Part shown: piece after piece, positions 11,275-28,573 of the stretch
Numbering within the stretch: the stretch's first letter is position 1
Layout: every line of letters begins with the position of its first letter
IMG/VR virus record: IMGVR_UViG_3300049926_000093
Span: 1 to 55,396 of that record
Length of the DNA stretch: 55,396 nt
Direction: 5' to 3' (one strand)
Origin: a virus
Lineage: Duplodnaviria > Caudoviricetes
Program-made: the position numbers and the translations under genes
Notes under the pieces: model-generated
Database searches by the model: none
What the model saw: only the letters and a program-made list of their open reading frames with translations
Told to the model about the DNA's origin: nothing

Positions 11275-11280
11275 TCCTTG

Positions 11281-13319: not shown

Positions 13320-13639
13320 CTTTTATTCTTCGCTTTTCCAACAGAAACGCATTTTTCTAAGATGTCTTTTGCTGATATCGCTATATCTCCGCAAAGCTTA
13401 TCGATTGTTGCTGCCATAATATTTTTCGCTTTCGCGGCATCATCAGCCTTCATGCCAAATGACGTTAGCATTGATACCATCGAGGATGCCGCGGCACCAC
13501 AATAAATATTCAATGATTCACTTGGAGGTAAATCGCGGCTTTTTTCAAACATTTCAAGGGTTAAAGCGCGAAATTTGGGATAGAATTCCTTAGCAATTTT
13601 ATACCCTTCGACATTAAAAGCTTCATCTAATTCGGCCAT
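13316..13639 (-). CDS. Hypothetical protein (tandem paralog of 13680..13982)
   Basis: Shared M.ELDE.FN...KEF...IY..A.A...ML..F...ADD....KNI...T.DK.C..I...AK. Confidence 0.65.
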   Translation of the reverse strand: MAELDEAFNVEGYKIAKEFYPKFRALTLEMFEKSRDLPPSESLNIYCGAAASSMVSMLTSFGMKADDAAKAKNIMAATIDKLCGDIAISAKDILEKCVSVGKAKNKR

Positions 13640-13679
13640 GACTGATCCTTTCTGTTATCTTCTGATTGAACAATAAATT

Positions 13680-13982
13680 TCACGATCCATCCTTAAAGAC
13701 ATTGACATCCTCTATCATCAAAATTTTTGCTGCCAGTGATATTCTTGAGCAAATCTTGTCAACAGTATTGAGTATAATATTTTTAATTTCCACTTCATCA
13801 TCAGCTTCTGTCTGAAATTGCTCGAGCATTCTTATAATAGCGGCAGCTGTAGCCATGCTATAAATGTGAAAGATTTCATCAATATCAAGCCCACTATTTT
13901 TTTTAGCCAGGTTAACAGCTAAGGCAGAAGATTCAGAATCGAATTCTTTAAAAATATTAAACCCTTCGTCTAATTCGGTCAT
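13680..13982 (-). CDS. Hypothetical protein (tandem paralog of 13316..13639)
   Basis: As for the paralog; upstream DNA is also similar. Confidence 0.65.
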   Translation of the reverse strand: MTELDEGFNIFKEFDSESSALAVNLAKKNSGLDIDEIFHIYSMATAAAIIRMLEQFQTEADDEVEIKNIILNTVDKICSRISLAAKILMIEDVNVFKDGS

Positions 13983-14058
13983 GACCCATCTGTTCCTGTT
14001 ATCTATAGATTAGATGCAACAATTGATATTTATAGATGTTAATTGTTAGAAAATAAAA

Positions 14059-14334
14059 TCAAAAATCATAGACCTCTCTCCTACTCCCTACCCTCACAAC
14101 TAAAACTATAGATTCATCCTCTTCAATTCGACAAATAACCCGCAAATCTTTTACACGATAACGCCACAAGCCATGCTTATCGTAAGAAAGGGGCTTTCCA
14201 AAACGCTTGGGGTCATCATCGACAGCAATTCTATCTCTTAGATATTTTAGAATTTCTTTTTGAGATTGCTTGTCTAACTTTCTCAGTTCTTTTCGCGCGC
14301 TGTCGTCAAATTCAACTATCCAGGTCAAGACCAT
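14059..14334 (-). CDS. relE: RelE/StbE family type II toxin
   Basis: ARKELRKLD...DPKRFGKPL...GLWRYRV.D.RVIC.I...VLVVRVG.RREVY. Confidence 0.9.
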   Translation of the reverse strand: MVLTWIVEFDDSARKELRKLDKQSQKEILKYLRDRIAVDDDPKRFGKPLSYDKHGLWRYRVKDLRVICRIEEDESIVLVVRVGSRREVYDF

Positions 14335-14524
14335 TCTCCAAGTCTTTTAACGGCCATCGCTTTTTGCGTTTTTCTAATCTATTTAAAGACAGGTAGATAT
14401 CTTCTAGCTCTTCGAGATGCTCTAGCACGGCTGCTCGAATATAATAAGCTTTTGGACGCCCCGTTTTTTCTGACAATAAATCAAGTCGGTTTTCTATTGA
14501 TTCTGGTAGGCGTATGGAAACCAT
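14312..14524 (-). CDS. RHH antitoxin (RelB/DUF6290-like)
   Basis: MVSIRLPESIENRLDLLSEKTGRPKAYYIRAAVLEHLEELED; overlaps the toxin start. Confidence 0.85.
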   Translation of the reverse strand: MVSIRLPESIENRLDLLSEKTGRPKAYYIRAAVLEHLEELEDIYLSLNRLEKRKKRWPLKDLENGLDLDS

Positions 14525-14625
14525 GGCTTTCCTCCTGTCAAAAAGATACATGTATTTTAATTGAGATACAAGTATACATCGAACGAGCTAAAAAATCTAC
14601 TCAATCAACGCTTGTCATTTTTTAT

Positions 14626-15438
14626 TCACATACTGCATGATAAACTAGGCGGCTCTGATTCCTGGCTTGCTTTAACATCATTATCAATCTTTTTGAAGCC
14701 ATGTTTGTCTAACAGTTTTTGTATTTTACTTTGCATTTCTTGATTTACTTCTAGTGTAGCGGGATTTACTAATTTTACGGCGGGATTTAGTGGGTAAGTT
14801 CTTCCACCACGTTTGTACCGCTCTTCAAGCGACCATTTTTCATAGAAATTACCGTCCGCACCTTTAACTGGAAATTGCATCACTTGCATAGTCACAGGGC
14901 ATCGGATATCTATTAATTCAACTTCTGGAATTTTATCCGAAAGAAAAGAATCAATTTCGTTTGAAGGCCAAATTATTTTGGCTTCGGAAATCTCAACAAG
15001 CTTACTTTCAGCATTAGCCTCCGCATCTAAAGAACCGTATAAAATATAGACATTTGACATTAAACGCCTATTTTCTGAAATTAACATCGCCTTTTCTTCT
15101 GCTAGAGCAGCCATTTTTTCTTCTAAAGTGGACTTATTTTCTAATAGGGCGGCCTTCTCTTCTGCTAGAGCCGCTTTCTCTTCTGCTAGAGAAGCTTTCT
15201 CTTCTGTTAAACGCGCATCCCAATTATCCAAAAAATCTTTAATTTTTTTAAAAACAAAAAAAGCTCCAATACTAGATATTGCTGTTAACGCATATTCTAT
15301 AGGTGATTCCACGATAATCCCTCCATAAACACAAAGCCACATAATCAATGTCATAGAAAATATGGAAAATATAAAAATGATTGGGGGTGTTAAAAAATAA
15401 CGCCAAAATGATAAATTACTACTATCGTTTAAAGTCAT
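14626..15438 (-). CDS. Membrane-anchored coiled-coil U-box domain protein
   Basis: Two N-terminal TM helices, LAEEKAA heptad repeats, CPVTMQVMQFPVKGADGNFYEKWSL...YPLNP...N; probable start ATG 15438. Confidence 0.8.
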   Translation of the reverse strand: MTLNDSSNLSFWRYFLTPPIIFIFSIFSMTLIMWLCVYGGIIVESPIEYALTAISSIGAFFVFKKIKDFLDNWDARLTEEKASLAEEKAALAEEKAALLENKSTLEEKMAALAEEKAMLISENRRLMSNVYILYGSLDAEANAESKLVEISEAKIIWPSNEIDSFLSDKIPEVELIDIRCPVTMQVMQFPVKGADGNFYEKWSLEERYKRGGRTYPLNPAVKLVNPATLEVNQEMQSKIQKLLDKHGFKKIDNDVKASQESEPPSLSCSM

Positions 15439-16168
15439 TAAAAGCACCTTTTTCTTCTGTTTCCTTTTCGCATGAAAAAGAATTTTCAATTTTTTTCAAT
15501 CCTATGTGAATAGATGTAAAGCTGTTATTTTTTAATTCTTTTTGCCTATTTCTTTCTGATGTTAAGGCCAGGCAATAAGCTGGTGTTTTCTTGATTTCTT
15601 TTATATTTTCTATGAAGTCTATATTTTTCGGCAACAAATCTGGATCAGATAATTTAATATTTTGATTAAACGGATAAACAGTGCCACCCTTTGCTATAAT
15701 GCCATGTAATGTTTTTCTATTATATGTGCGTCCGTCACCCCCCAAAACACAATCATCATCAAGAGGCTCCGCGGTTATTGGGTCTGTGGGATTAAGTGCA
15801 TCGATATTTATCCCAAACTCTTCCCGAACAATTCTTATTATATCTTCATTGGATATCTCAGCAAATTTAGCTACTTTCAGAACTTGTTCGATCGCTCTTG
15901 CTTGCGCTTTTGTGGCAACAAGCTCGTCCCTAAGCTCCTCGTTATCTTTTTCTAATTTTGATATTTTTTCTTTTGAATTTAAGTCTTCCTTTTTTAATTT
16001 CAATATCTCTTCTTTTGATTTTAACTGTTCTTTTTTTAATTCTATCAGTTCTTCCTCAGCCGAATAACTTTTCATTATTCTTTTGTAAACCCAAACGACG
16101 CCAACCGCAACAATTGCAACAGTTGCAACAATTGCAGCACCGCCAAGAAGAATTGTAATCGGATCCAT
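15422..16168 (-). CDS. Membrane-anchored coiled-coil U-box domain protein
   Basis: N-terminal TM helix, coiled coil, DPITAEPLDDDCVLGGDGRTYNRKTL...YPFNQ...LPKN. Confidence 0.75.
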   Translation of the reverse strand: MDPITILLGGAAIVATVAIVAVGVVWVYKRIMKSYSAEEELIELKKEQLKSKEEILKLKKEDLNSKEKISKLEKDNEELRDELVATKAQARAIEQVLKVAKFAEISNEDIIRIVREEFGINIDALNPTDPITAEPLDDDCVLGGDGRTYNRKTLHGIIAKGGTVYPFNQNIKLSDPDLLPKNIDFIENIKEIKKTPAYCLALTSERNRQKELKNNSFTSIHIGLKKIENSFSCEKETEEKGAFNDFKR

Positions 16169-16354
16169 AGTGTCTCCTTACTTTAAATTTTTATAGAAAA
16201 ATAGTTTTTTGATTAGCGATGATGGAACTTTTTTTGATGCTGGTTTTTTTATTTAACCGCCAGCCATTATTTTTTCATTTCCAGATAAATTGCAAGCCTT
16301 TTTTGATCTATTTGTTACAAACTAACCAAAAAGGGTATTTTAGACCAAAATGAA

Positions 16355-16388
16355 AAGTGGGCATCCCTGCCCGTGCCATGAACCTTTA
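16355..16388 (-). repeat. Intergenic repeat copy 1 with GGGCA-GGGA-UGCCC hairpin
   Basis: aagtgggcatccctgcccgtgccatgaaccttta, identical to 18161-18194. Confidence 0.92.
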
Positions 16389-16392
16389 AGTC

Positions 16393-17043
16393 TTATTTTT
16401 TCATGCCATTACCTTTTTCTTCTTTAACATCAGAATCTATTTTTTTAGAACCATTTTCTAGTGTTTCTTTTATTGCTACTACTTGTAGATTTTCTCTTCT
16501 TATTGTTCCTTTTTCACCCAAGTTGTAAGCAGCGTATTCTGTTGAACTACTTGGCGCGAGATCGCGCGCCTTTGCAATTACAGAAGTTGCAACAGAGATA
16601 CAACCGATAGAAATTATAGCTATGCTTACAGCTGAAATTGGTAAAAATACCCCCAAAATAATTGCTGAAACGCCTGCGGAAAAAAGTAGAATTTTCCAAT
16701 TTTTTTGAAAAAAGGATTTATTTAATAAGGTTCTTTCTGATTCCATTATTAACCCTAAAATATTATCCATCTCTGCTCTGGACCTATTAATAATCTTTAA
16801 ATCCATAATCTTTTCTGACCGATCACTTCTTTGTAATAGAGATAATTCATATTTTAACCTTGTTTCCTCCTTAGACAGCTTGGCATCTAATTTCAAAAGG
16901 ACAAGATCAGCATCCTGTATTTTTTGTAAATATGTATAATCGTGTCTAGATAAAATATCTATAGCGTTGTCTATTTCATTGGCCAAGCTTGAATTAAATT
17001 CTTTTAAATAAATCAGCTTTTTTATTATTATTTGTGTGTTCAT
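16393..17043 (-). CDS. Coiled-coil protein with a long bilobed hydrophobic segment
   Basis: About 40-aa hydrophobic stretch ILLFSAG...ATSVIA. Confidence 0.65.
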   Translation of the reverse strand: MNTQIIIKKLIYLKEFNSSLANEIDNAIDILSRHDYTYLQKIQDADLVLLKLDAKLSKEETRLKYELSLLQRSDRSEKIMDLKIINRSRAEMDNILGLIMESERTLLNKSFFQKNWKILLFSAGVSAIILGVFLPISAVSIAIISIGCISVATSVIAKARDLAPSSSTEYAAYNLGEKGTIRRENLQVVAIKETLENGSKKIDSDVKEEKGNGMKK

Positions 17044-17117
17044 AACTATTTACCCCTCATTTTTGTTGTTATTATCAAGTTAATTCACCAATAAAAATCA
17101 TCTCCTTAATTAATGTA

Positions 17118-17144
17118 CATCCCTGCCCGTGCCATGAACCTTTA
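17118..17144 (-). repeat. Intergenic repeat copy 2 (27-bp core)
   Basis: catccctgcccgtgccatgaaccttta. Confidence 0.92.
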
Positions 17145-17148
17145 TTTC

Positions 17149-18081
17149 CTAAGAAGGCCTAGGGGTCGGTGCCGTTTCTAGCGCATTAGACGCCTTCACT
17201 TCTATCTTCTTTCCATCCTCACTATATGCTGTCACTCCAAGCTCTTTATATTTTTTCGCTGCTTCTTCTGTTAAACCTTTGTCATTACCTCCTACAATTA
17301 CTTCTTTTGCACCCGTTGACGCGACATGCTCACATAGTTGATGGACTGATTTCAGTTTATCTTGATACGAAGCTTCTTGCGTTGGTTTATATTCAAACTT
17401 TCCCCCTTCTTTTTTGTATGCTTCTTTTGTATCTAACACTTTATAGATTCCGTCTTTCATTTTATCAGCAAAAAAGCTATAGCTCGGTGGCGGCGTTGGA
17501 ACTGGTAAAATGGGTAAATTTAACGATTTCGGTTTTATTTCAGAAGAAAAAGAAATTTCAGGCGTGTGTTTTTGAGTATGATCAGCAGCCCTAGAAACTT
17601 CTTTCTCCTCTTTTGCTTCTTTTTTTGGTCCATCAAGTGATTCTAGCCGTTTTTTCATCCTCTCAAACTCTGCCTTTTCTTCTGGCGTTTCTTCAATATT
17701 TTCATCATTTAAAGCATCAAGCTCAGATTTTTCTTCTGATACTTCTTCAATATCTTTATTGCTTTCTAATCCTGATAAATCATCCTCTTTAATTGCATCT
17801 TGTGAATTATCTTCAATTTTTACACTTTCATTAATATTATATTTTTTCTGAAGCTCAATAAGCTCACTAGGCGAAATTCCATCGTATCTAAGTATTTCTC
17901 GCCATTTTTCTTCTAATGCTATACTTTTTCTTTTTAGCTCATCTAGTCTTTTTTGTTGCTCTTCTGTCAACCCTCTCTCTTTTTGTAAATATTCCAAATG
18001 TCTCAATTCTTCTATCTCGCCTTTTGTCATTTCAAGTTTTTTTAATTTCTTTAGTCCTTCTTCTATTTCTTGTCTGTTCAT
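17149..18081 (-). CDS. Charged low-complexity protein with an LPD7-like C-terminal domain (paralog of 18192..18947)
   Basis: DGIYKV..TKE.YKK.G...EY...H....GAKE....G.DK.L...A.....E.G.T. Confidence 0.6.
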   Translation of the reverse strand: MNRQEIEEGLKKLKKLEMTKGEIEELRHLEYLQKERGLTEEQQKRLDELKRKSIALEEKWREILRYDGISPSELIELQKKYNINESVKIEDNSQDAIKEDDLSGLESNKDIEEVSEEKSELDALNDENIEETPEEKAEFERMKKRLESLDGPKKEAKEEKEVSRAADHTQKHTPEISFSSEIKPKSLNLPILPVPTPPPSYSFFADKMKDGIYKVLDTKEAYKKEGGKFEYKPTQEASYQDKLKSVHQLCEHVASTGAKEVIVGGNDKGLTEEAAKKYKELGVTAYSEDGKKIEVKASNALETAPTPRPS

Positions 18082-18160
18082 GACACACCCCTTTTGTTAT
18101 TATTTTTAATGCTCCATGTCAAATGCCATTTCCAAAAAACTTTTTATTAGACCACTTCCT

Positions 18161-18194
18161 AAGTGGGCATCCCTGCCCGTGCCATGAACCTTTA
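18161..18194 (-). repeat. Intergenic repeat copy 3 (supplies the TAA stop of 18192..18947)
   Basis: Identical to 16355-16388. Confidence 0.92.
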
Positions 18195-18947
18195 TTTAAC
18201 AAACCGTGGAGGGGCTTGTATCATTGGTGGATCGATTCCCTCCGGCAGTTTAATTTTTGTTATTCCGTGCTCTTGAAGTCTATAGCACGCGATGTGTAGC
18301 AAGTTTTTATCCGTTCCCCTTAACTCAGCCTCTTTTCCACCGTTTTCAACAAAGTGATCAACCATTTGCTGCACTACTTTTATCTGATCAGCTTTATTAC
18401 CTTTTACCGCATACTCATAAGAGTCACCCGTTTTTTTGTACTCTTCTTTTGTTTCTGGAACTTTATAAACACCGTCTTCTCTTCCGAACTTCAACCTTTC
18501 GGGCGGCTTCGGTACCTGCCTATTTGATTTAGTTTTTTGATGAACACTAGAGACCCGCATCCCTACGTTAGGCTGTACATCTTCAATCACAACGATAGGA
18601 GTTGAAGCACTATAAGCATTTGTTCTCCCCTCCCCCTCCGAATATTTTTGATCAAGCTTATCAGACCCTTCTTGGCCCTTTTCTTCCTTTTCCGCTTCCG
18701 ATTTATCTTTAGGCGTCACCTTTAATTTTTTTATTAATTCTAGAGATTCCTCCATCGCCTTTTTTCTTGGCTCATTAGTCTCTTTATTTTTCAAAAGATT
18801 TAATCGTTCAACTTCTATATCAATGAGCGAATCAAAAACACCTTCGTTTCCAGACCTTCCGAAATGTATCGCATTTTGAAGCTTCATTCCGAGCCAATGT
18901 TTTCTATTAAGATTTTCTATCGCCTCAAATACTTTTTCGTTTATCAT
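18192..18947 (-). CDS. Charged protein with an LPD7-like C-terminal domain
   Basis: DGVYKVPETKEEYKKTG...MVDHFVENGGKEAELRGTDKNLLHIACYRLQEHGIT. Confidence 0.6.
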   Translation of the reverse strand: MINEKVFEAIENLNRKHWLGMKLQNAIHFGRSGNEGVFDSLIDIEVERLNLLKNKETNEPRKKAMEESLELIKKLKVTPKDKSEAEKEEKGQEGSDKLDQKYSEGEGRTNAYSASTPIVVIEDVQPNVGMRVSSVHQKTKSNRQVPKPPERLKFGREDGVYKVPETKEEYKKTGDSYEYAVKGNKADQIKVVQQMVDHFVENGGKEAELRGTDKNLLHIACYRLQEHGITKIKLPEGIDPPMIQAPPRFVK

Positions 18948-18986
18948 GGCACTCTCCTATTTTTAGTTTATTTTCTAAAAATATTC

Positions 18987-19559
18987 CTATCTTTTAAAAC
19001 TTTTTGCTTCAAGCTGTTTCAGCTTTTCAGATATAAAGCCTTTCATTACCTCATCAGTGCCTGATAGTTGTGAATCACCTCTGGCACCATATTCAGAAAA
19101 ATATATATCCGCGAGATGGTTTGAAACCTCAATTTTTTCGCTAAATGTTTTCGCTTTACCCACAAAAAATGCCAACTCATGCTTAAAAAAGGCTGTTTTG
19201 CATGTTTGCCGCACAATGAAACCAGTGCCAGAACTCTCATAAGAAGATATTGTTGATGAATATTTAATGCCATTAATTAGCGCGTCTGTTTCTATAATAG
19301 AAAGACGTTTGCTTAAATCCGTCGCCCTATTTCTGTTATCAAGAATTTCTTTATATTCTTTACCGCTAACATCAGCGTCAGGCTCTAGATATGTGTCACA
19401 AAATTCGATACCGTTTAGAATATTCGGCGTTATTAGCTTTATAATAGCCGCCGCCTCTCTATAACCGACCACGCCTTTTTCTATCATGCTTATCAGCGTT
19501 TCGGCATCATCTAGCTGAGAAGCGTTTAATTCTAGCGCGTCTTCTATATATTTATTCAC
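18987..19559 (-). CDS. Hypothetical protein
   Basis: N-terminal half resembles 19556..19876 (CD..LE...S.....E...). Confidence 0.6.
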   Translation of the reverse strand: MNKYIEDALELNASQLDDAETLISMIEKGVVGYREAAAIIKLITPNILNGIEFCDTYLEPDADVSGKEYKEILDNRNRATDLSKRLSIIETDALINGIKYSSTISSYESSGTGFIVRQTCKTAFFKHELAFFVGKAKTFSEKIEVSNHLADIYFSEYGARGDSQLSGTDEVMKGFISEKLKQLEAKSFKR

Positions 19560-19876
19560 GACACGCCCCCCATTTTTTTCACATTATTCATCAAGCTTTC
19601 AATTATCATTTTCGTATTAACTTTTGAAACCCTATCATAAAAATCAATTGACAAAGCTTTTTGCTTGCAAAGCTCTTCGCGATCAAAATCACTTATTACG
19701 TTCTTTTTTTCAAGAAACAAATCACAATAATCCATTGCTGAAAAAACATATCTACACATTTTATCCATCTCTTTCTTGCTCTTTTTTAAAGCTCCACCCT
19801 CTATTAATGCCAGTTCTTTAATTGAATTCTCTATTAGAAATCTTGTGTCTTCTAGCTGTCTCGTAATTTTTCGCAT
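19556..19876 (-). CDS. Hypothetical protein
   Basis: GGGGG SD; 4-bp overlap with the next gene. Confidence 0.6.
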   Translation of the reverse strand: MRKITRQLEDTRFLIENSIKELALIEGGALKKSKKEMDKMCRYVFSAMDYCDLFLEKKNVISDFDREELCKQKALSIDFYDRVSKVNTKMIIESLMNNVKKMGGVS

Positions 19877-19906
19877 TTTACACCCCCACAGGAAAATGTT
19901 ATTTAC

Positions 19907-20113
19907 TTAAAATTTCCCCTTTAATACTCTTTCTTTTACTCGCTCACTTTCAGACACATCACCGCTAATGTATATTTTATTGAGCTCCTCTTTTTTTATA
20001 GATAAAAGCTCCCTTAAAATAGCATCCCCCTCGCCTTCTTGTTTGCTTCTAAAAATTTTCAATTGCACCTCAGCTTCTCTTATAAGTTTGTCTATGTTAT
20101 CTTTTGTTTTCAT
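19907..20113 (-). CDS. Hypothetical protein
   Basis: ATG 20113 preceded by GGAGGT. Confidence 0.55.
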   Translation of the reverse strand: MKTKDNIDKLIREAEVQLKIFRSKQEGEGDAILRELLSIKKEELNKIYISGDVSESERVKERVLKGKF

Positions 20114-20172
20114 GACACCTACCTCCATTCCTACTTATAACTACAAACATCTGAAAATCTTCTTGCACTTAC

Positions 20173-20202
20173 ATTATAGTACAAAAACATAAATATGTTT
20201 TT
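20173..20202 (-). promoter_or_regulatory. Leftward -10 (TATAAT) with an adjacent 9-bp inverted-repeat operator
   Basis: attata at 20173-20178; AAAAACATA-aa-TATGTTTTT at 20183-20202, divergent from an RHH gene. Confidence 0.55.
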
Positions 20203-20269
20203 ATTCTTTGCATGAAATGCGTTTTAATGTTAAGATTGAGGGTGTTTTTTTAATTATTAAGGGATTCTT

Positions 20270-20452
20270 ATGAAAGAACGGATGGCAAAAAGGAATTTTG
20301 TGGAAAAGGGAACGAATAAACTATCTAGAACTACCATTTATCTTCCCGAAGAATTAAAGAGGGCCCTAAAAACAAAGGCTGCCGCTGAGGGGATCACAAT
20401 GGTAAAAATAATTGTAGGCCTGGTTGAAGAATACGTAAAAAGAAAAAGTTAA
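20270..20452 (+). CDS. Ribbon-helix-helix (CopG/ParG-like) DNA-binding protein
   Basis: RTTIYLPEELKRALKTKAAAEGITMVKIIVGLVEEY. Confidence 0.85.
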   Translation: MKERMAKRNFVEKGTNKLSRTTIYLPEELKRALKTKAAAEGITMVKIIVGLVEEYVKRKS

Positions 20453-20458
20453 AAACCT

Positions 20459-20827
20459 CTATCCTGTAATAAATTTCTCAAGCTCCTCAATATTGAGGGG
20501 CTTCGTCATATGAGCGTCTATCTTGACGCCCTGCATTTCATCTTGATCGTGATTCGTCGCGCTAACAACTATTATAGTAGCCGTCGGCTGTTTGCTGTTG
20601 TGTCTAATATGTTTCGCTACCTCGAAGCCGCTCATGTCGGGTAGGCCTATATCAAGGAGAATAGCATCATATAATTTACCCCCTTCGATTTTGCAAATTG
20701 CTTCGCTACCAGACATAGCTACGTCTACACTATAACCGTTATCTTGCAAACGTAGCCCTACCACTTTTACGACAAGCTCGTTGTCTTCTACAAGTAAAAT
20801 ACTTTTTTTACTATTATTATCCTGCAT
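20459..20827 (-). CDS. Single-domain response regulator (receiver)
   Basis: LLVEDN, LLD59IGLPDMSG, S89, K109-P. Confidence 0.95.
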   Translation of the reverse strand: MQDNNSKKSILLVEDNELVVKVVGLRLQDNGYSVDVAMSGSEAICKIEGGKLYDAILLDIGLPDMSGFEVAKHIRHNSKQPTATIIVVSATNHDQDEMQGVKIDAHMTKPLNIEELEKFITG

Positions 20828-20832
20828 TATCG

Positions 20833-22002
20833 CTAAGCCTCAGCCAGTTCCTGTTCAATTAATGACAGCTTGTATGGTATCAATATTTTAAATACAGAGC
20901 CGCCACCTTCCCTATTGTCTACGCTGTAAACTTCGCCGCCGATATCTTCCAGAAATTTACTAACTATCCGCAACCCTAAACCATGGCCTTCATAAATCCC
21001 CTTATACGATGGGGTTATTCTAGTAAAACGTTCAAAAATAATACCTTTCTTATCCTCTGGGATTCCTATGCCTGTATCCTCTATGTTAAATTGCACAACT
21101 ATATTTTTTCCCGATTTTTTTATTAAAGATGCGGAAAGTCTTACATGTCCTTTATTTGTGAATTTTATAGCATTTGATAAAAGATTCATTAGTACTCGAT
21201 GGGTTCTCAAAGAATCGCCGATTATTTTTTTGGGGATTCTTTCATCAATGTTAACGCTAAATTTCAATTTTTTTTCAAAAGCGAGCGGAGACATAAGGTC
21301 ACTTAAACCAATCAATATGCCGTGCAAATTAAATACTTTATTTTGTACATTTCCTTCAACTTCTTCTATCTGTATAATTTCAACGACTTCATTTAGCATT
21401 CTAAGATGCTCGCTGGCTGCATTATAAGCGGAATTAAGCAAGTCTTTTTTTTCATCGTCTTCTTCAGCATCCCTAAAATGTTCAATAATCCCCATTATTG
21501 ATGAGAAAGGCGTCCTTATATCGTGCCTCATGTTATACAAAAATTCTTTTTTTGATTGTTCAGAAATTTTGGCTCGCTCAGTCGCTATCAAAAACGCTTG
21601 CTCCATAACTTTAAACTTCGTAATATCGACAGACACGCCAACTATACCGACAACATCGCCAATATCATTCCACAGAGGTTTTTTTGTTGTAAAAAAATGC
21701 TTTTGGCCGCCAACAGCAATCATCGGACACTCTTCTATTTCAATAGTTTTTTTTGTTAAAATAACCTCCTTGTCTATTTTTTCTAAATTTTCAGAAATAT
21801 CTTTCCACGGCAGTTGATTATCCTTTTTTCCGATAAGTTCATCTCGAGACTCCACCCCCGACATATTAAGCATGAATCGATTGCAGCTTATATATTTTAA
21901 GTCTAAATCTTTGGCGTAAATACTGACACCAGGAACGCAGTCAATCATTTGCATAACTAAGTTATCAAGTTCTTTCTTGTGATTTTTGTTGTTCTTTTCC
22001 AC
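20833..22002 (-). CDS. Cytoplasmic PAS-domain sensor histidine kinase
   Basis: PAS/PAC ending GIVGVSVDIT; H-box NMRHDIRTP; N-box NLLSNAIKFT; DTGIGI; GHGLGL; no TM helix. Confidence 0.95.
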   Translation of the reverse strand: MEKNNKNHKKELDNLVMQMIDCVPGVSIYAKDLDLKYISCNRFMLNMSGVESRDELIGKKDNQLPWKDISENLEKIDKEVILTKKTIEIEECPMIAVGGQKHFFTTKKPLWNDIGDVVGIVGVSVDITKFKVMEQAFLIATERAKISEQSKKEFLYNMRHDIRTPFSSIMGIIEHFRDAEEDDEKKDLLNSAYNAASEHLRMLNEVVEIIQIEEVEGNVQNKVFNLHGILIGLSDLMSPLAFEKKLKFSVNIDERIPKKIIGDSLRTHRVLMNLLSNAIKFTNKGHVRLSASLIKKSGKNIVVQFNIEDTGIGIPEDKKGIIFERFTRITPSYKGIYEGHGLGLRIVSKFLEDIGGEVYSVDNREGGGSVFKILIPYKLSLIEQELAEA

Positions 22003-22711
22003 GCGCTTCTCCGAGTATAAATTGATCGCTGTTTTTAATTATCGCCTCTACTTTTAAAAATCCCTGCCGCTCATCAATCATAATGCCTTTATTAAAAATT
22101 TCTATTAAGAAATCTGGAGGTTTGTTGTAAGCGAAGACCGATGATTTTACTTGTAGAATATAAGAAGTTTTTATAAAAAGAGGGAACTCATGTAAAAAAT
22201 ATTTGACCGCTATGTTTATTTTTTCTTCTGTAATTTCATCCACCTTTTCACTTAACGATAAAATATGATGGGCTGTTTGAATGCAGGCATCTTTAAATTC
22301 TTTGTTGGTATCAAACATAGAAAGACAATGATTGTAAACTTCTTGATATCTTACGTTAGAAAGCAGTGCGCTTATTGTAACGATCGTATCTTCTGATTTA
22401 CCAAGCCTACTTAAAGCCTTAGCGGCTTTGTTTCTCAAATAACAATCTTGTCTTTTTGTCTTTCGTTCCGCATCTTGCTTTTCATAACCGATTGCTTGAA
22501 GTGTGTAGCTAGATATAAAGTCGGGTATGAATAAATGCACGCTTTCAAAATTTTTGAAAGCCCACTCCGTCAATCTAAAAATTCTTTCTTCTGAAAAATA
22601 ACTATTGAACGGGCTAATGCCAATCAGTATGTGTTTTTTTTCTTTATAGATTAGCTTTGATTGTTGGCCTATCGGGCATGCTTCTACTTCTGAAAAATCA
22701 GATAATTCCAT
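21965..22711 (-). CDS. tRNA-dependent cyclodipeptide synthase (AlbC/YvmC-like)
   Basis: HILIGIS33PFN36SYFS, Y171FLHE175FP, AY195, C-terminal QGF; 248 aa. Confidence 0.92.
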   Translation of the reverse strand: MELSDFSEVEACPIGQQSKLIYKEKKHILIGISPFNSYFSEERIFRLTEWAFKNFESVHLFIPDFISSYTLQAIGYEKQDAERKTKRQDCYLRNKAAKALSRLGKSEDTIVTISALLSNVRYQEVYNHCLSMFDTNKEFKDACIQTAHHILSLSEKVDEITEEKINIAVKYFLHEFPLFIKTSYILQVKSSVFAYNKPPDFLIEIFNKGIMIDERQGFLKVEAIIKNSDQFILGEARGKEQQKSQERT

Positions 22712-22815
22712 CTCAATTGCTCCCCTCGTTGGGCAAAAGTTTTAATTTTTTTCGCGAGGAGAGCTTTCGCATCAACTCACTTCGACGCGGAAAATATCAC
22801 CATTCGTTATACTAT

Positions 22816-23070
22816 TCAACCAACTTGTATATATCCATGCGACACACGCCGTTTTTTGACTTGCTCTATATAGTCATGAACCACGCTCTTATCATTAAAA
22901 GTAAGATTTTCTAAGTTAACGCCGCGCTTCCCTGCCCCGCCCCATATTTTGGTCACAACGAATTCGCCAAACGGCGTTGGCTGTATTGCAATTGTGTAAT
23001 ACCTATGTAGTGCAACTTTGCTATCATCCCTGATTATTTTCTCCCATCGAAAAAAAACGGGATCAGACAT
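22816..23070 (-). CDS. WGR-domain protein
   Basis: RYYTIAIQPTPFGEFVVTKIWGGAGKRG...KRRVSHGY (WGG in place of WGR). Confidence 0.75.
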   Translation of the reverse strand: MSDPVFFRWEKIIRDDSKVALHRYYTIAIQPTPFGEFVVTKIWGGAGKRGVNLENLTFNDKSVVHDYIEQVKKRRVSHGYIQVG

Positions 23071-23101
23071 TCTTTATATTTCTCCAATAGTTTATTGTCA
23101 A

Positions 23102-23536
23102 TCAGAAGGGAATATCATCAAAATTTTCAGGCATAATGCCAGGATAAGTTTCAAGCTTTTCATCTTTCGATTTATCAGGAAACGATCCTTGTTCACCACC
23201 ACGGCTATCTAACATTTGCAGCTCTTTTCCAAGAATCTTTGTTGCTTGTCTATCTTGCCCTTCTTTGTCTTTCCATTTTTGAGTTTGGAGCTTACCTTCA
23301 ATATAAACCTTTGACCCTTTTTTGAGAAACTCTCCAGCTATTTCAGCAAGACGACCAAAAAGAGCGACGTTGTGCCATTCTGTTTTATCATGATTTTCGC
23401 CTGTTTTTTTATCTTTCCAAGACTCGTTTGTCGCAATGCTGATATTTGTAAAAGCATCGCCGCTAGGCATGTAACGAATCTCTGGATCATTTCCTAGATT
23501 GCCGATTAAAATAACTTTGTTTACTCCTCTAGCCAT
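23102..23536 (-). CDS. ssb: Single-stranded DNA-binding protein
   Basis: [18 protein letters not shown]...TEWH...DDIPF. Confidence 0.97.
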
Positions 23537-23538
23537 GC

Positions 23539-24492
23539 TTATTCTCCCTTTTCTTCGTCACCAAAAAAATCTTGTGATACTTTTTCTGTTTCTTTTTCTT
23601 TCATTAACTGAATCTGTTTGTTTTTAAATGATTTTCTAACTAAGCCTTTATCTGTTTCATCGAGGGATTTTGCCTGCTCGCTAATATCGTTTAAAAGCTC
23701 TAATGTATCAGCCTTTTCTATTTTTTCTAAAATGGTTTTTTTATCTACAATTGGCTTTTCTTCTTGAGTATTTTTTGTTGTTTTTGTGCGAAGCTTGTCC
23801 CTGATAGAGTCAATTTTGTTAAGTTGACCAAATTGTTTTGTTATATTTTCTACTAGTTCCTCAACCTCAACTGAATCAAGCGTTTTCCCTTCCATTTCTT
23901 CCGCAGTTGGTTGAGAGCAAAATTCTGGAAATGCTTTTCTCAGTGCTTGGGCTTCCGCACATTTTGCAATTTGGCCAAAAGACCTTTTAGCCCACATGGC
24001 ATTAGGCTCTAGTTTTAATTGTTTGGTTATTTTATCTTTCCCCGCATTAGCATAATTTTCTAGCCAAAATTCTTTGGCCGGGAACTCTGCAATCACGTTA
24101 CCAACTAGCTTTTTAACAATAACACGCGACCATTCAGGAAATGTGAATTCCTTTTCTCCAAGCTTTTTTGTTATTAATGGCCCAAATTCAGGCTCTGTAG
24201 TGCCAACATGCAAGCCAGTACGGCTCGCTTGGATACGGTACAGCCCTACCCCAGGCATAACAACGTCGCGGAAGCTATATTCGCGAGCTTGAGAATCATA
24301 AACATTCATGGCCACTATATGTACTGGTTTTTGCATAACATCTAATTTTGCTGCTTTACAATATGAAACCACCATGGCAATGCTTTCATCTTTTGCCCCA
24401 GGATAAATACTGCTTTTAAGTGCGGAATAAATGTATTTGTCAATTCCAAAAGACTCAATTATTGCTGGTACTTCAATTTCATTAGATGACAT
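23539..24492 (-). CDS. bet: Phage recombinase (Bet/RecT family)
   Basis: [22 protein letters not shown]...TAEEM; ATG 24492 with AGGAG SD. Confidence 0.9.
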
Positions 24493-24508
24493 TAAAAAAC
24501 TCCTATTG

Positions 24509-25327
24509 TTAATTGAAGGCCCAGCTGGGCAACGTAATATATTTCTGCTCGTAGCCAGGCCAGTTATTTTTTTCCAAACATTCTTTATATTGAACCAACA
24601 GTTTTTTAAACTCTTCTCTACCTTTTTCAATAGCGTTCTTATCTAAAAAATAGATTGCCGTTAAATAAGGCTTTAATTTTTCAACAGCTATAAATATAAA
24701 TTCATCAACTTGTCTATTCATTTGAGCTTTAATACCTTCCGATATCATCGCTGCTTGAACATGGTAGCCGTAATTGTAAACTGAGCGTTGAAATGCTTTC
24801 TCTGATGCGTTGATTGTCGTTTTCAAATCACATACAATAACTACATTGGCTCCGATTTCATGTAAAATGTCAGGGCGGCACTTGCATAAAACCCCCGTAT
24901 CTGGGTCAATCCAATATATAGATTTTTCATAAGATGCTTTTTGTATTAACTCTAAAATGAACGGGTCTGCGTTTATTGAATTAACCATTCCAAGCAATGT
25001 TTGGTATTCATCGTAAGTTAATATCGTCTTTCCTACATTATCTTCCGTGAACTTCTTTATATATTCCTTGCCTTTTTTTGTTCTCTTATCTACCTTCATA
25101 TCCTCATAGACAAAATCACGCTTGAAAAGATGTGGCTCTAGAATATACGGGTGAAATGCTGCCCCAAATTCTTTAGCGGGCGTGGACTTTTCAGGCTCTC
25201 TATCTTCTTTTAAATATTGATTCCAATAATGTCTTGGTGTTTTGCTGAATGTCATCAACCCACTACGACTTATCCCCTCAGAAAAATGATATTCTTCATT
25301 AGTAATGTCATAAATCCCAGGTTTCAT
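24509..25327 (-). CDS. RecE-like exonuclease (PD-(D/E)XK, exonuclease VIII/DUF3799-like)
   Basis: PGIY.ITNEEYH...ISRSGL...G.AFH..ILEP...KCRPD...DLKTT...YGYHVQAA. Confidence 0.9.
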   Translation of the reverse strand: MKPGIYDITNEEYHFSEGISRSGLMTFSKTPRHYWNQYLKEDREPEKSTPAKEFGAAFHPYILEPHLFKRDFVYEDMKVDKRTKKGKEYIKKFTEDNVGKTILTYDEYQTLLGMVNSINADPFILELIQKASYEKSIYWIDPDTGVLCKCRPDILHEIGANVVIVCDLKTTINASEKAFQRSVYNYGYHVQAAMISEGIKAQMNRQVDEFIFIAVEKLKPYLTAIYFLDKNAIEKGREEFKKLLVQYKECLEKNNWPGYEQKYITLPSWAFN

Positions 25328-25430
25328 ATTGTTTTTTTAAAGCCTCCGCCTTGATTTTAGGTATTTAACTATTTTTTTAAAAAATTTCCTTACTTTCAAG
25401 TACGCACTACTTTTCTTTTTTGCCATTATC

Positions 25431-25856
25431 TCAATCCTTTGAGTTTGCCGCCCGCTTCGCTGGTTCGTCGTATAATCCATCGTATAAATCAATGGCATCT
25501 TCTGCCGCCTTATTTCGTCTATTCTGCTCTGAGTTGTAGGCCTCATTCGCGCTTCTTATTAGTGCGTCAATCTCGTCGAGATAAACACATATCGCATTCT
25601 CTTCTAAACGCTCTAAAAGCTTCTTTCCGATGACATCTTTTAATGCTCGATTATTTTCACCGACATACTCAGCGAGCAATAACGGCATTTCATCGTCGAC
25701 AACAATGCAATTGTATAAATCGCACTTTTTCTCGCTCTTGATTAGTGATGACGTTATTTCCCCAAGCTCTTCCCTGTCTAAATCCTTGGCAGTTTTTCTT
25801 CCTAAAAACGCCAAGTTCTCAACTTTTTGAAAAACGCTCTGCTCGCCGATTTTCAT
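25431..25856 (-). CDS. Hypothetical protein
   Basis: ORF with GGGAG SD in the leftward operon. Confidence 0.55.
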   Translation of the reverse strand: MKIGEQSVFQKVENLAFLGRKTAKDLDREELGEITSSLIKSEKKCDLYNCIVVDDEMPLLLAEYVGENNRALKDVIGKKLLERLEENAICVYLDEIDALIRSANEAYNSEQNRRNKAAEDAIDLYDGLYDEPAKRAANSKD

Positions 25857-25908
25857 ATCTACTACCCCCTTTTTTAATCGTCCTTGACCGCTTTTTATTG
25901 GGATATCT

Positions 25909-26166
25909 CTACTCGTCTAAAAAAATACTATATTTTTCGACAAGCCTTTCAAGAACGCCGTCTATCTCATTTATAATGGACTTGCTTATTTCATCCCACA
26001 GAGGCTTCTTGTGCCGATTAACATAGCAACTAACTTCGCACTCCAACTCCCATATCATCTTCTTTAACTGTTGCCGAACAGCAACCAATGTATTTGCCAT
26101 CTGAAGATGCAAAGCCATCTCGTCTTCATCAAGCACAAGCGTATAGGTGCGTTTTGCGATTTCCAT
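25909..26166 (-). CDS. Hypothetical protein
   Basis: ORF with GAGGGG SD. Confidence 0.55.
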   Translation of the reverse strand: MEIAKRTYTLVLDEDEMALHLQMANTLVAVRQQLKKMIWELECEVSCYVNRHKKPLWDEISKSIINEIDGVLERLVEKYSIFLDE

Positions 26167-26242
26167 TTATTACCCCTCATCTCATTTTTTTAAAAATGAC
26201 AAGCGGCTAATATGTATTATACACATACATACAAGCATTGTC

Positions 26243-26267
26243 TAGTATAGTATAGTATAGTATAGTA
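26243..26267. repeat. (TAGTA)5 tandem repeat
   Basis: Five exact copies in the AT-rich gap downstream of the par genes. Confidence 0.85.
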
Positions 26268-26341
26268 TATATTAATATATATTTGTATATATAGTGATAT
26301 ATTAGTTCCAGCTTTGATAATATAGCTTAGTGTATAAAAAC

Positions 26342-26662
26342 TTATATCTCATCGGCCGAGATAACGATTATTTCCCCCGCTTTCTTTATTTCCTCAAGCC
26401 CCCTCAAAATCAAATAATTAAGCACTACCTGGGCGCTTCCATTGCAATATTTTTCGATATCATCAGCAACATTCTTTTTCAGATAAATTAGTTGGGGTGC
26501 TTTTAGACAATCGGCTCGCCTGTTCCTTCCCGTGATAGAAAGTAGAATTTTTCTATTTTTTTTGTTTTTCGCAGGAATTAACTCTTTGTTAGCGCCTTCA
26601 ATAAAATCGTCAAATGAAGGCTTCGATTTACTTTTGTTTTTAAGATGATCAAATTTGCTCAT
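26342..26662 (-). CDS. Small ParA partner (type Ib centromere-binding candidate)
   Basis: Directly follows parA; FDDFIEGA N-terminus and RHH-like C-terminus. Confidence 0.6.
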   Translation of the reverse strand: MSKFDHLKNKSKSKPSFDDFIEGANKELIPAKNKKNRKILLSITGRNRRADCLKAPQLIYLKKNVADDIEKYCNGSAQVVLNYLILRGLEEIKKAGEIIVISADEI

Positions 26663-26666
26663 AAAA

Positions 26667-27428
26667 TTAATCCCTATTTTTTGAATTTATGTATGTTTCC
26701 AATGTTGAAAAATCTGCCCCTGAAAAATCTGTACCAAATACTTCTTTATAAAGATTGCAGAATTCTATTGATCCTTTATATAGGTAATCTTTGACTTTAT
26801 ATTTGGGTAAACTTTGTCTTCTTTCTTCTTCATATTCAACGACTGCCTGACTTTTTCCGTAAGCATTTTGTATTGACATCCTGTTACAAATAACGGTTGT
26901 AGACAAACTCAAATATTCATATGTGCTAACTAACTCTTTAGCATCTATGGTGTCAGAAGAACTTCCGATTAAAATAGGTACTTGTGTTAAAAGAATGCGG
27001 CAATTTAATTTTTCATTGTGAGATCGGGCAAGATAGACGATCTCATCCATCGTTTGTAAAGTCTCTAAATCTGGAGTGCTAGCTTTAAAGGGAGAATACA
27101 TATCAGTGACGCACGAGGCGGCCATCGCAGATCGAAGTTCCACAGAATCAGCTCCACCTACATCAACAATAACGGTTTCATATCGAGTGTTTAGGCTGTT
27201 TAGCTCTTCATGTATGTATTTCCCATAAATTTTAACGCAATCTGGTGTTGGCTTTAATCCAATTTCTTTTCGCCGATTTATGAATTTTATACTAGATGCT
27301 TGCTTTGCAATTGTTGCGTCCACAAGCATGACATCATGCCCCATTATAGCCGCCATGATTGATAAGTTTACGGCAGTGGTGGTTTTACCCGTTCCGCCTT
27401 TTTCTCCACCGATTAATATAACTGCCAT
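26667..27428 (-). CDS. parA: ParA family partition ATPase
   Basis: Deviant Walker A GGEKGGTGKTT, VMLVDA, VIVDVGGADSVELRSAM. Confidence 0.92.
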   Translation of the reverse strand: MAVILIGGEKGGTGKTTTAVNLSIMAAIMGHDVMLVDATIAKQASSIKFINRRKEIGLKPTPDCVKIYGKYIHEELNSLNTRYETVIVDVGGADSVELRSAMAASCVTDMYSPFKASTPDLETLQTMDEIVYLARSHNEKLNCRILLTQVPILIGSSSDTIDAKELVSTYEYLSLSTTVICNRMSIQNAYGKSQAVVEYEEERRQSLPKYKVKDYLYKGSIEFCNLYKEVFGTDFSGADFSTLETYINSKNRD

Positions 27429-27684
27429 TTTTCCACCCCTCGAATAAAAATAATTACTATTATCTATATTAAGATAGTTTTATCTATATAAAAACATAAA
27501 ACACTTATTTTATTATCACGATATTAATATTATTTAAATTAAAAAATATTAATTTAATATATATTGTCTTATATTAAATTATATAAGTATATATAAATAT
27601 ATATGTCGCGTTATTACTAGGCGATATAGATATTTTTTTCGTTTCTATTGATTTGTTTGCTTAGATAAAGCAGGATTGTCGGGC

Positions 27685-27772
27685 AAAAAAAAAAGCCCAA
27701 CTAACTAGAGAACTTTCGAGGGGCTCAAGTTAGCTGGGCATCTTATCGCTTTCTATACGTTGGGGAATAGCA
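27685..27772 (-). ncRNA. Putative antisense (countertranscript) RNA in the repA leader
   Basis: Minus-strand TTGATT-N16-TAGAAT at 27806-27779; 12-bp stem 27695-27739 followed by U10. Confidence 0.45.
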
Positions 27773-28573
27773 TTGAATATTCTAACAAAGCATCAAAAAA
27801 AATCAATAGGCTACGTTGCTCAAAAACTAGTAATAGCAACTTTTCCACATTCAAAAACAAAAGAGCTTAACTTTACAAGAAAGAATGGCAATTATCGTCT
27901 AAGTTTGCAGGCACTTCCTGAGTTCGGCTTGCCCTACGGTTCTATTCCAAGGCTGCTTCTCGTATGGATAGTAACTGAGGCTGTCAAAAAGAAGAGCCGC
28001 GAGGTTTTGCTGGGTGATAATTTAAGTCAATTTTTGAAAGCATTAAAAATTAACAGATCAGGGGAAAGAATAAGACAAGTTAAAGATCAAATTTCACGCC
28101 TATTAACGACCAAGATAACTTATATCTACATAAACGAAAATAATAGGCTGTCTTTTGAAAACATTAACACTGTTAGCAAGGCAGATATTTTTTGGAATGT
28201 CTCCGGGAGCATTAAAGGCAAGTCCTCGGTAACTTTATCCCAAGAATTTTTCGATAGCATTATTAAAAACCCTGTTCCAATTTCTGTTAATGCCATATAC
28301 GAAATCCGTAAATCTCCGATGGCAATTGACATCTATTGTTGGCTCACTTACAGAATGAGCTACTTGAGCCGAAAAACAAAAATATTATGGTCTCAATTAG
28401 AACAACAGTTTGGATCAAGCTACATTAACTCGCGTGAATTTAAGAGAAAGTTCAACAAACAAATACTAAAAGTTTTAAAGATTTACCCAAGTGCGATGGT
28501 TCAAAAAGTTGAAGATGGAATCATCTTATATCCCTCAAAAACGCATGTATGTAAAAATGGTGTGGATAACTAA
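27773..28573 (+). CDS. repA: Plasmid replication initiator RepA (RepA_C, IncW-like family)
   Basis: FPHS...R.NG...GLPYGSIPRLLL.WI.TEA...SPMAIDIY.WLTYR...W.QL..QFGS.Y; TTG start. Confidence 0.9.
   Translation: MNILTKHQKKSIGYVAQKLVIATFPHSKTKELNFTRKNGNYRLSLQALPEFGLPYGSIPRLLLVWIVTEAVKKKSREVLLGDNLSQFLKALKINRSGERIRQVKDQISRLLTTKITYIYINENNRLSFENINTVSKADIFWNVSGSIKGKSSVTLSQEFFDSIIKNPVPISVNAIYEIRKSPMAIDIYCWLTYRMSYLSRKTKILWSQLEQQFGSSYINSREFKRKFNKQILKVLKIYPSAMVQKVEDGIILYPSKTHVCKNGVDN

Follow-up and report, generated by a model that had tools for sequence, protein, structure and literature searches.

A cyclodipeptide synthase gene coupled to genes for a PAS histidine kinase and a receiver on a probable phage-plasmid: a candidate mobile synthase-sensor cassette

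IMG/VR virus record IMGVR_UViG_3300049926_000093 (Duplodnaviria; Caudoviricetes) is a 55,396-bp genome from a metagenome, with a completeness of 100% according to CheckV, and was analysed over its full length (positions 1 to 55,396, referred to as the window). Its minus strand carries three tightly coupled genes, referred to as the trio, which encode a cyclodipeptide synthase (CDPS), a soluble histidine kinase with a PAS sensor domain, and a lone receiver (REC) domain:

20459-20827, minus strand: single-domain receiver of 122 residues, without output domain (PF00072)
20833-22002, minus strand: soluble sensor histidine kinase of 389 residues with a GTG start (PAS_4, HisKA and HATPase_c)
21965-22711, minus strand: CDPS of 248 residues (PF16715 and TIGR04539)

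The CDPS gene overlaps the start of the kinase gene by 38 nt and a gap of 5 nt separates the kinase and receiver genes. Both junctions were read directly, and confirm the coordinates and the coupling of the three genes set out in an earlier note that had been made from the DNA sequence alone. A Shine-Dalgarno-like motif precedes each of the three starts. The GC content of the trio (0.358) is that of its flanks (0.349 and 0.367; 0.419 in the rest of the genome).

The CDPS matches PF16715 with 186.3 bits (cut-off 27) over profile positions 3-218 of 220, and TIGR04539 with 206.6 bits (cut-off 45). Its catalytic residues S33, Y171, E175 and Y195 are invariant across a 19-sequence CDPS alignment, and align with S37, Y178, E182 and Y202 of AlbC. 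The strict NYH signature (N40-Y202-H203 in AlbC) is incomplete: N36 and Y195 are present and residue 196 is Asn, at a position that is occupied by His or Lys in other CDPSs of the same clade. The solved enzymes nearest to the phage CDPS (BtCDPS and YvmC) are nevertheless NYH-type, and for this reason it is classed as NYH-like rather than as a strict NYH member. The signatures of its two substrate pockets are LGFPILFF (P1) and THISKPD (P2). P1 is hydrophobic and agrees best, at 6 of 8 positions, with published Leu- or Pro-accommodating motifs; P2 contains H149, where 15 of 20 other clade rows have Trp. Exact matches of the pocket motifs to any characterised product group were not found. (Pocket mapping was checked on one locus, for which it reproduced the published P1 exactly and P2 at 6 of 7 positions.)

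The kinase consists of a PAS domain (residues ~15-135) followed by HisKA (40.7 bits) and HATPase_c (81 bits). H160, N277, D309, G313, G339, G341 and G343, which make up its H, N and G1/G2 boxes, are invariant in 16 aligned kinases. No transmembrane segment is discernible by hydropathy (the highest 19-residue value is 1.29, vs 2.61 in a membrane-like control open reading frame (ORF)). The protein ends after HATPase_c and does not have the tripartite layout of ArcB and BarA: its receiver is a separate protein and Hpt is absent. The receiver matches PF00072 alone (75.3 bits, profile positions 1-110 of 111), with E14-D15, D59, S89 and K109 all present in its translation. It is the only REC domain in the genome, and a domain search finds no Hpt domain anywhere in the phage. 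The intact catalytic residues of all three proteins, the soluble kinase and the receiver without output domain had all been described in the earlier note and stand as described; the absent Hpt domain, an ArcB-type cysteine in the PAS domain and the phage-plasmid lifestyle of the element (both taken up below) are additional to it.

CDPS proteins from other sources are at most distantly related to the phage enzyme (46-48% identity for the nearest). No CDPS was matched in 50,697 GenBank phage records, and motif scans of IMG/VR found no relative. (These scans require exact motifs and, like Pfam at 1e-3, missed a divergent prophage CDPS that is described below; for that reason the viral CDPS counts are floors.) A scan of species-representative genomes yielded 80 CDPS loci. 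A homologue of the phage kinase lies directly beside the CDPS in 10 of them (9 places); no kinase homologue is detected at E 1e-5 within the available flanks of the other 70. The CDPS gene overlaps the kinase start in Legionella saoudiensis, L. erythra and L. shakespearei, and on two Legionella plasmids, the L. pneumophila LPE509 conjugative plasmid NC_020522.1 and L. lytica pLlyPCM2298_1. The CDPS-linked kinase of Legionella is a 676-684-residue PAS-HisKA-HATPase-REC-Hpt hybrid in all four of the five loci that can be read whole (the kinase contig of L. shakespearei is cut). The trio is the sole content that the window and the Legionella elements have in common, and the two plasmids carry no exporter or tailoring genes beyond unrelated metal-efflux genes. 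CDPS genes are present in 5 of 150 Legionellaceae genomes scored (one further genome was not scored), a rarity that fits an accessory, mobile trait.

In four alphaproteobacterial assemblies synthase and sensor are joined in a single protein, in both orders and in two assemblies each: CDPS-PAS-HATPase (loci L005 and L008) and PAS-HisKA-HATPase-CDPS (L071 and L073). Moreover, all three CDPS-containing proteins of more than 434 residues in a large protein collection are PAS-HisKA-HATPase-CDPS fusions.

Linkage to a kinase follows the phylogeny of the synthase. A tree of 92 CDPS rows gathers all 15 rows with a linked kinase in a single 21-row clade (FastTree support 98); not one of the 71 remaining rows is kinase-linked. 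The same clade is recovered by IQ-TREE from 50 rows with an SH-aLRT value of 98 (the 42 rows left out of that run are L065, a Legionella sequence from inside the clade, and 41 from outside it). Genomic context is visible for 17 CDPSs of the clade, of which 15 are kinase-linked; the six rows not labelled as linked are four bare proteins without visible context and loci L027 and L076. The phage CDPS forms a long branch inside the clade and outside the Legionella subclade, and thus has not been picked up recently from the known Legionella plasmids. Recent capture of a common chromosomal block, which the earlier note had named as an origin that would undo its reading, likewise leaves no trace (best CDPS identity 48%, GC content equal to that of the flanks). 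By all appearances, the link between CDPS and kinase is an ancient, conserved and horizontally mobile module.

Some individual loci of this group have features of their own. The CDPS gene of L027 (about 6000-6670) is degraded to a pseudogene: a stop codon interrupts the frame at the conserved Pro-Asp, an in-frame start is missing, and no kinase adjoins it. In the Legionellaceae genome G017 (contig 83, 10042-11017) the CDPS gene is followed by an overlapping ORF of 92 residues that consists of PAS only, without a kinase core, and has 52-57% identity to that of the phage; we see this ORF as either a remnant or a PAS partner that stands alone. The L. saoudiensis contig NZ_LN901319.1 (77,155 bp) contains the CDPS-kinase locus twice, at 1347 and at 70567 (L087 and L090), consistent with a circle of ~69 kb whose ends overlap in the assembly.

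It is the PAS domain, and not the kinase core, that tracks the CDPS. Over residues 15-135, the PAS of the phage has 40-45% identity to its counterparts in the Legionella hybrids and in most alphaproteobacterial fusions. The kinase cores of the fusions and of L003 and L004 are only 20-26% identical to the phage core, and occupy ranks 124-132 of 132. Ranked by PAS, 11 of 13 linked kinases stand at positions 4-21 of 132 (L005 is at 44 and L073 at 74). Of the 24 invariant columns across the 16 kinases, 14 fall in the PAS domain. In all five CDPS-bearing Legionellaceae genomes (36 PAS matches) the best match is the CDPS-linked PAS, with margins of 5-28 bits (in one of these genomes it is the only match). 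G017, with its PAS-only ORF, is one of the five. The closest relative of the phage kinase, P0086, is 67% identical overall and has the same C-terminal end. (Its contig was not found in IMG/VR, and a metagenome scan gave only an unrelated locus at 26% identity.) Identity between these two proteins is 78% in the core and 49% in the PAS; in this pair the transmitter is changing far more slowly than the sensor.

The nearest solved relative of this PAS type is the VqmA receptor of vibrios and of a vibriophage. A profile built from ten CDPS-linked PAS domains and searched against the whole PDB has 6ugl, 6kju and 6ide as its top entries (E 1e-9), followed by BvgS (6e-5) and 7dwm (1.2e-4); the VqmA match spans profile positions 14-118 of 120. 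(According to the source publications, the first three entries are VqmA of Vibrio cholerae with bound DPO, and 7DWM is VqmA of phage VP882, likewise with DPO.) Modelling of the phage PAS with AlphaFold (pLDDT 93.2) leads to the same protein: VqmA chains occupy ranks 1-6 among at least 500 fold matches (TMq 0.83-0.84), the next PAS domain follows at TMq 0.73, and BvgS is at rank 48. DPO is a pyrazinone autoinducer whose small six-membered ring contains two nitrogens and bears a carbonyl; it is stacked between F67 and F99 of VqmA, and its carbonyl is hydrogen-bonded by K101. VqmA K101 aligns with phage K107, which is invariant (this is counted through an alignment with ~20% identity, in which residue mapping is uncertain); further pairs in the alignment (VqmA/phage) are K23/K31, D71/D77 and D85/E91. 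The likeness to VqmA ends with the sensor domain: the PAS type matches and the C-terminal LuxR-type helix-turn-helix (HTH) is absent (Pfam matches only PAS, HisKA and HATPase_c). The phage kinase is not a VqmA, although it may bind a ligand as VqmA does.

A scan of IMG/VR with the PAS profile revealed a second phage lineage, represented by two related records, G152 and G153 (a 36-kb "provirus" and a 25-kb "linear" fragment are the two; 82-84% identical to one another):

G152, 5449-10481: second-lineage locus (L116 and L117)
G153, 922-3195: second-lineage locus (L118)

The kinase of this lineage has the layout PAS-HisKA-HATPase-REC and is 34% identical to the phage kinase. Directly upstream of it lies an ORF of 315 residues that has no Pfam match at 1e-3. 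It matches seven distinct solved CDPS sequences (best E 1.7e-8), has a feature score of 0.91 in the ESM Atlas with 184-190 features in common, compares by structure with TM values of 0.63/0.80, and retains the Ser and the Y-P of the XYP type. This ORF is a divergent CDPS; because it has Phe in place of the catalytic Tyr, its activity is uncertain. The locus also contains a lone REC, an OmpR-type regulator and a transporter of the major facilitator superfamily (MFS); the latter is a possible exporter, so that the second locus is the fuller one, with a candidate exporter and output genes. It lies inside a prophage, with a DUF3799 nuclease gene (46.5% identical to the nuclease of the window) on its left, and tail, head and replication genes, HTH_3 and an integrase on its right. 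A CDPS together with the same type of PAS kinase is thus found after recombination genes in two otherwise unrelated phage lineages. The earlier note had suggested a search of phages and plasmids for this synteny, and its yield is the CDPS-kinase pairs of the Legionella plasmids and the analogous pair of this second lineage.

In the window, the trio is surrounded by the following features:

20270-20452, plus strand: CopG-type ribbon-helix-helix gene, convergent (PF07878 29.9 bits, PF01402 22.6 bits)
22712-22815, minus strand: 104-nt gap upstream of the CDPS gene, carrying its Shine-Dalgarno motif
23102-23536, minus strand: SSB (Pfam)
23539-24630, minus strand: RecT (Pfam)
24509-25327, minus strand: DUF3799 nuclease (Pfam)

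The stop of the CopG-type gene is 6 nt from that of the receiver. Upstream, a short GC-rich hairpin (22717-22736) encloses the Shine-Dalgarno motif of the CDPS gene; it may gate translation or be an entry point for separate control. The trio sits in the low-GC early/accessory arm, directly after the genes for the DUF3799 nuclease, RecT, SSB and a WGR protein. Its position at the end of the early recombination genes is therefore as the earlier note placed it. The limits of an operon could not be defined, since promoter-like sites (31, vs 31.3 expected) and terminator-like sites (7 vs 6.0) occur at chance frequency. The same note's statement that no tailoring enzyme or exporter is nearby agrees with Pfam searches of the neighbours, which detect no tailoring enzyme or transporter adjoining the trio. 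The ORFs between 16393 and 19559 match no Pfam family. One of them (16393-17043, minus strand; 216 residues), 3.4 kb downstream of the trio, reaches a hydropathy of 2.61 over residues 128-146 and is the only membrane-like protein near the trio. Two others (17149-18081 and 18192-18947, both on the minus strand) are charge-rich and, by eye, have a C-terminal stretch that is alike; they may be paralogous cargo genes.

The element as a whole has the genes of a phage and those of a plasmid. Structural and packaging genes are present (TerL at 424 bits, portal, tape measure, baseplate, tail genes and TerS), and an M15 endolysin and a DNA methyltransferase are also encoded. Three further genes bear on its lifestyle and its host:

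14626-15489, minus strand: U-box ORF of 287 residues (C-terminal PF04564, 28 bits)
26667-27428, minus strand: ParA (ParA family matches)
27773-28573, plus strand: RepA (RepA_C, 85.9 bits)

The plasmid-type maintenance genes (26667..28573) also match phrog_164, and the RepA matches 1105 plasmid records. A Pfam search finds neither a tyrosine integrase (PF00589) nor a serine recombinase (PF00239) in the genome. With structural, packaging, replication and partition genes and no integrase, the element has the gene content of a phage-plasmid, and it is therefore probably one. An exact overlap of 127 bp joins the ends of the window (1-127 and 55270-55396) and is labelled a "direct terminal repeat"; it is most simply explained by a circular molecule assembled at k=127, rather than by physical phage ends. 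The genome lacks a recognisable CI, as had been noted earlier: it has no S24 (CI/LexA-type) peptidase, and a small HTH_3 ORF near 11143-11280 is the sole such regulator. No tRNA genes were found. GC content is ~0.35 in the leftward early/accessory arm (11000-27500) and ~0.42 in the structural/replication arm, which suggests that the genome is of mosaic origin.

Close phage relatives were not found (the best TerL identities are 51% in IMG/VR, 44% among GenBank phages and 43% among plasmids), and the public runs listed as carrying the genome comprise one DNA run, which may be the source sample, and no RNA data set. As to the host, the named relatives of the kinase come from Coxiellaceae and other Gammaproteobacteria, and homologues of the trio occur in Legionella. 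The U-box is a eukaryote-type E3 ligase fold that is typical of effectors from intracellular bacteria; of the 149 Legionellaceae genomes scored, 5 encode relatives of the window's U-box at domain level (27-39% identity). These hints point loosely toward a Legionellales-like bacterium. Counting against such a host, the RepA of the window has no match in the 149 Legionellaceae genomes scored.

What does the trio do? We regard it, with about an even chance of being right, as a cognate synthase-sensor cassette carried as mobile cargo, in which the product of the CDPS, or a derivative of it, is the ligand of the PAS domain. The CDPS would make a cyclodipeptide from host aminoacyl-tRNAs, probably with at least one hydrophobic residue; this compound or a close derivative would bind the cytoplasmic VqmA-like PAS of the kinase, and binding would alter how the kinase phosphorylates itself at H160 and how it passes the phosphate to D59 of the lone receiver. 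Since the phage has neither an Hpt domain nor an output domain, the receiver would act by protein contact or through a host phosphorelay. The cassette would travel as cargo in the early/accessory arm of this phage, which probably persists in the manner of a plasmid. The domain identities, catalytic residues, linkage, fusions, PAS orthology and VqmA likeness are computed results; from them we infer the ligand, the direction of signalling, its output, and whether action is between cells or within the cell. In the earlier note the kinase senses the dipeptide through its PAS domain: of that claim the coupling of synthase and kinase through the PAS is sustained, by clade, fusions, PAS orthology and VqmA-like PAS, and the ligand is the inferred part.

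A number of observations weigh against a cognate cassette. The residues of VqmA between which DPO is stacked, F67 and F99, align with L73 and T105 of the phage kinase (again at ~20% identity); a pocket in which lysine binds the carbonyl but no aromatic pair stacks the ligand would suit a diketopiperazine, whose ring is not aromatic. The PAS of Escherichia coli ArcB also matches VqmA and BvgS (E ~0.02), and the likeness to VqmA is for that reason probably in part a trait of a wider PAS subfamily. The receiver has no orthology signal, the CDPS-linked REC being the top match in only one of three genomes. Two members of the CDPS clade are without a kinase, the pseudogene L027 and the intact, stand-alone L076, and the CDPS of the second phage lineage has Phe at the position of the catalytic Tyr of the solved enzymes. 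The phage version, without the Hpt domain of Legionella, could be a stripped remnant. Dipeptide product, ligand binding and enzyme activity are predictions. Finally, it would be unusual for a signal that reports on other cells to have its synthase and sensor fused; because the two are fused, cell-autonomous action is at least as likely as communication between cells.

A further point against the cassette leads to a different sensor function. C40 is invariant in the 16 kinases and aligns exactly with C180 of ArcB in a shared C-N-R motif (C40-N41-R42 and C180-N181-R182), which suggests thiol or redox sensing instead; C180 is the residue that mediates quinone-dependent silencing of ArcB. An ArcB-like kinase that senses redox state via C40, the cyclodipeptide being an output or a co-inherited secondary metabolite (aimed, for example, at competitors or at a eukaryotic host cell) and not the ligand of the kinase, is improbable in our estimate, though it deserves serious attention. 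ArcB is the best NCBIfam model for the kinase (183.7 bits vs a cut-off of 838) as well as for the receiver, and is 26% identical to the kinase over PAS, HisKA and HATPase (E 1e-38); BvgS, the best single-sequence PDB match of the PAS, has Cys at the position of C40 in the printed alignment. However, the second ArcB cysteine, C241, is not conserved and has H102 as its counterpart; the soluble kinase has no membrane anchor by the quinone pool; the fold of its PAS is nearer to VqmA than to BvgS, with no ArcB PAS structure among the matches; and redox sensing gives no account of a PAS type that tracks the CDPS across two fusion orders and changing kinase cores. The fusions in both orders, together with genes that overlap or closely abut elsewhere, are what one would also expect of a physical complex of sensor and synthase, in which the kinase gates synthesis (as a model, RpfC holds RpfF in signalling by DSF) or the CDPS reports the supply of aminoacyl-tRNA to the kinase, the dipeptide being a by-product or an internal messenger. 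Exporter and tailoring genes are absent beside the trio and, metal efflux aside, on the two Legionella plasmids, and in G017 the PAS-only ORF has been kept beside a CDPS without a kinase core. Even so, such a complex seems to us distinctly unlikely: catalytic residues are fully conserved, so that a product is presumably made, the ligand-binding type of PAS is conserved as well, and contact between kinase and CDPS is putative. (The predicted complex of the two proteins scored 0.00, which carries no weight for or against contact.)

That the trio might be an arbitrium-like switch, in which an extracellular dipeptide of phage origin sets the choice between lysis and latency or plasmid maintenance through kinase and receiver, had been put forward in the earlier note. 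The claim is not supported, in that nothing ties the module to lysis or latency and that it also occurs on conjugative and other plasmids of Legionella; we consider it unlikely. What speaks for it is the presence of a synthase with a matching sensor on a complete element of temperate type, the VqmA homologue of phage VP882 (which is reported to launch lysis) as a member of the closest solved PAS family, and the possible exporter beside the analogous pair of the second prophage lineage; the fast divergence of the PAS in the pair with P0086 is a pattern that might be expected of diversifying signal-receptor pairs. On the other hand, the receiver is linked to no lysis or maintenance gene, no exporter adjoins the trio in the window, the same module occurs in cellular genomes and on Legionella plasmids, where there is no lysis decision to make, fused synthase-sensor proteins favour cell-autonomous action, and close phage relatives were not found to examine. 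The most far-reaching version, of which we are correspondingly doubtful, has the phage-plasmid making and sensing its own tRNA-derived dipeptide to choose between quiet plasmid maintenance and lytic growth; CDPS and VqmA-type PAS kinase would then be a distinct class of signalling system with a dedicated receptor, so far uncharacterised, and plasmids and no fewer than two phage lineages would spread it among host-associated bacteria, Legionella-like ones included. At the opposite extreme, the trio would be decaying cargo, a stripped and useless remnant of a CDPS-hybrid kinase module of the Legionella type. The phage does lack Hpt and has its receiver in a separate gene, unlike Legionella, and such modules decay elsewhere (the L027 pseudogene, the PAS-only ORF of G017). 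Yet the three ORFs are intact, with all of their catalytic residues and with plausible ribosome-binding sites, P0086 ends at the same C-terminus, which indicates that the split form is conserved, and the GC content of the trio does not set it apart from its flanks; decay is very improbable.

With these relatives a single odd phage locus becomes a family, which takes in Legionella plasmid loci that had gone unexamined and single-protein fusions. Cyclic dipeptides have long been proposed as signals, and we know of no characterised receptor that is dedicated to a CDPS product and genetically linked; the cassette is a compact candidate, comprising a synthase, a soluble sensor domain of ~120 residues, a kinase and a receiver. 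If the product is the ligand, this would be a new signal-receptor chemistry related to DPO-VqmA and the first CDPS found in a phage, and phages and plasmids would move complete make-and-sense units between hosts. Were the choice between maintenance and lysis also to prove true, it would be the first phage communication by a self-synthesised non-ribosomal small molecule. If redox sensing should be correct instead, the module would still couple a two-component relay to peptide synthesis that depends on tRNA, in a manner new to the literature.

The literature touches on such loci in passing. A single sentence in Skinnider et al. (2018) places PAS domains among the most frequent non-biosynthetic domains of CDPS clusters and suggests that products of such clusters may serve in quorum sensing, much as in a Vibrio system; kinases, two-component systems, response regulators and phages go unmentioned in that paper. 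Aravind and colleagues (2010) reported CDPSs in intracellular bacteria including Legionella and called all of them stand-alone proteins, a statement that the CDPS fusions contradict. The genome paper on L. lytica lists the plasmid CDPS cluster and goes no further. For the Legionella CDPS-kinase loci only automatic annotation was found, as far as searched, and searches of openly available full texts, judged in part by the titles listed, turned up no description of a CDPS in a phage, of CDPS fusions or of their link to a kinase, and no paper on a phage-plasmid of Legionella (subscription journals and supplements lay outside this scope).

Among characterised systems, the closest by sensor domain is DPO-VqmA of V. 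cholerae and VqmA(Phage) of VP882, whose PAS is the nearest solved relative by profile as well as by fold. VqmA is a transcription factor with PAS and HTH; the phage protein described here is a kinase without HTH. Furthermore, vibriophage VP882, which encodes its VqmA receptor and reportedly uses it to launch lysis, listens to a signal made by its host, whereas the present element carries its own synthase. The CDPS and hybrid kinase of Legionella agree with the phage genes in order and strand, in CDPS clade, in PAS type and in their occurrence on mobile elements. They differ in that a single protein of 676-684 residues combines the kinase with receiver and Hpt; in the phage, kinase and receiver are split and Hpt is lacking. 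Identities are only 37-39%. ArcB is membrane-anchored and tripartite; the phage kinase is soluble and split.

Other likenesses are of arrangement. In the arbitrium system of Bacillus phages (AimP/AimR) the signal is a secreted, processed ribosomal peptide and the receptor a protein with tetratricopeptide repeats and HTH. The likeness is that the phage encodes both signal and receptor; the arbitrium parts themselves are absent from the trio (AimR-like genes elsewhere were not searched for). In LuxM/LuxN and CqsA/CqsS of Vibrio and in LqsA/LqsS/LqsR of Legionella, a synthase is encoded beside a (hybrid) sensor kinase and a receiver. The sensors of those systems are membrane proteins whose ligands are acyl-homoserine lactones or hydroxyketones; the trio has a soluble PAS domain as its sensor and a tRNA-dependent synthase. 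The trio is probably a variant, and the first from a phage, of the known kind of signalling locus that pairs a synthase with a sensor kinase, with a chemistry that has been hinted at before but is uncharacterised.

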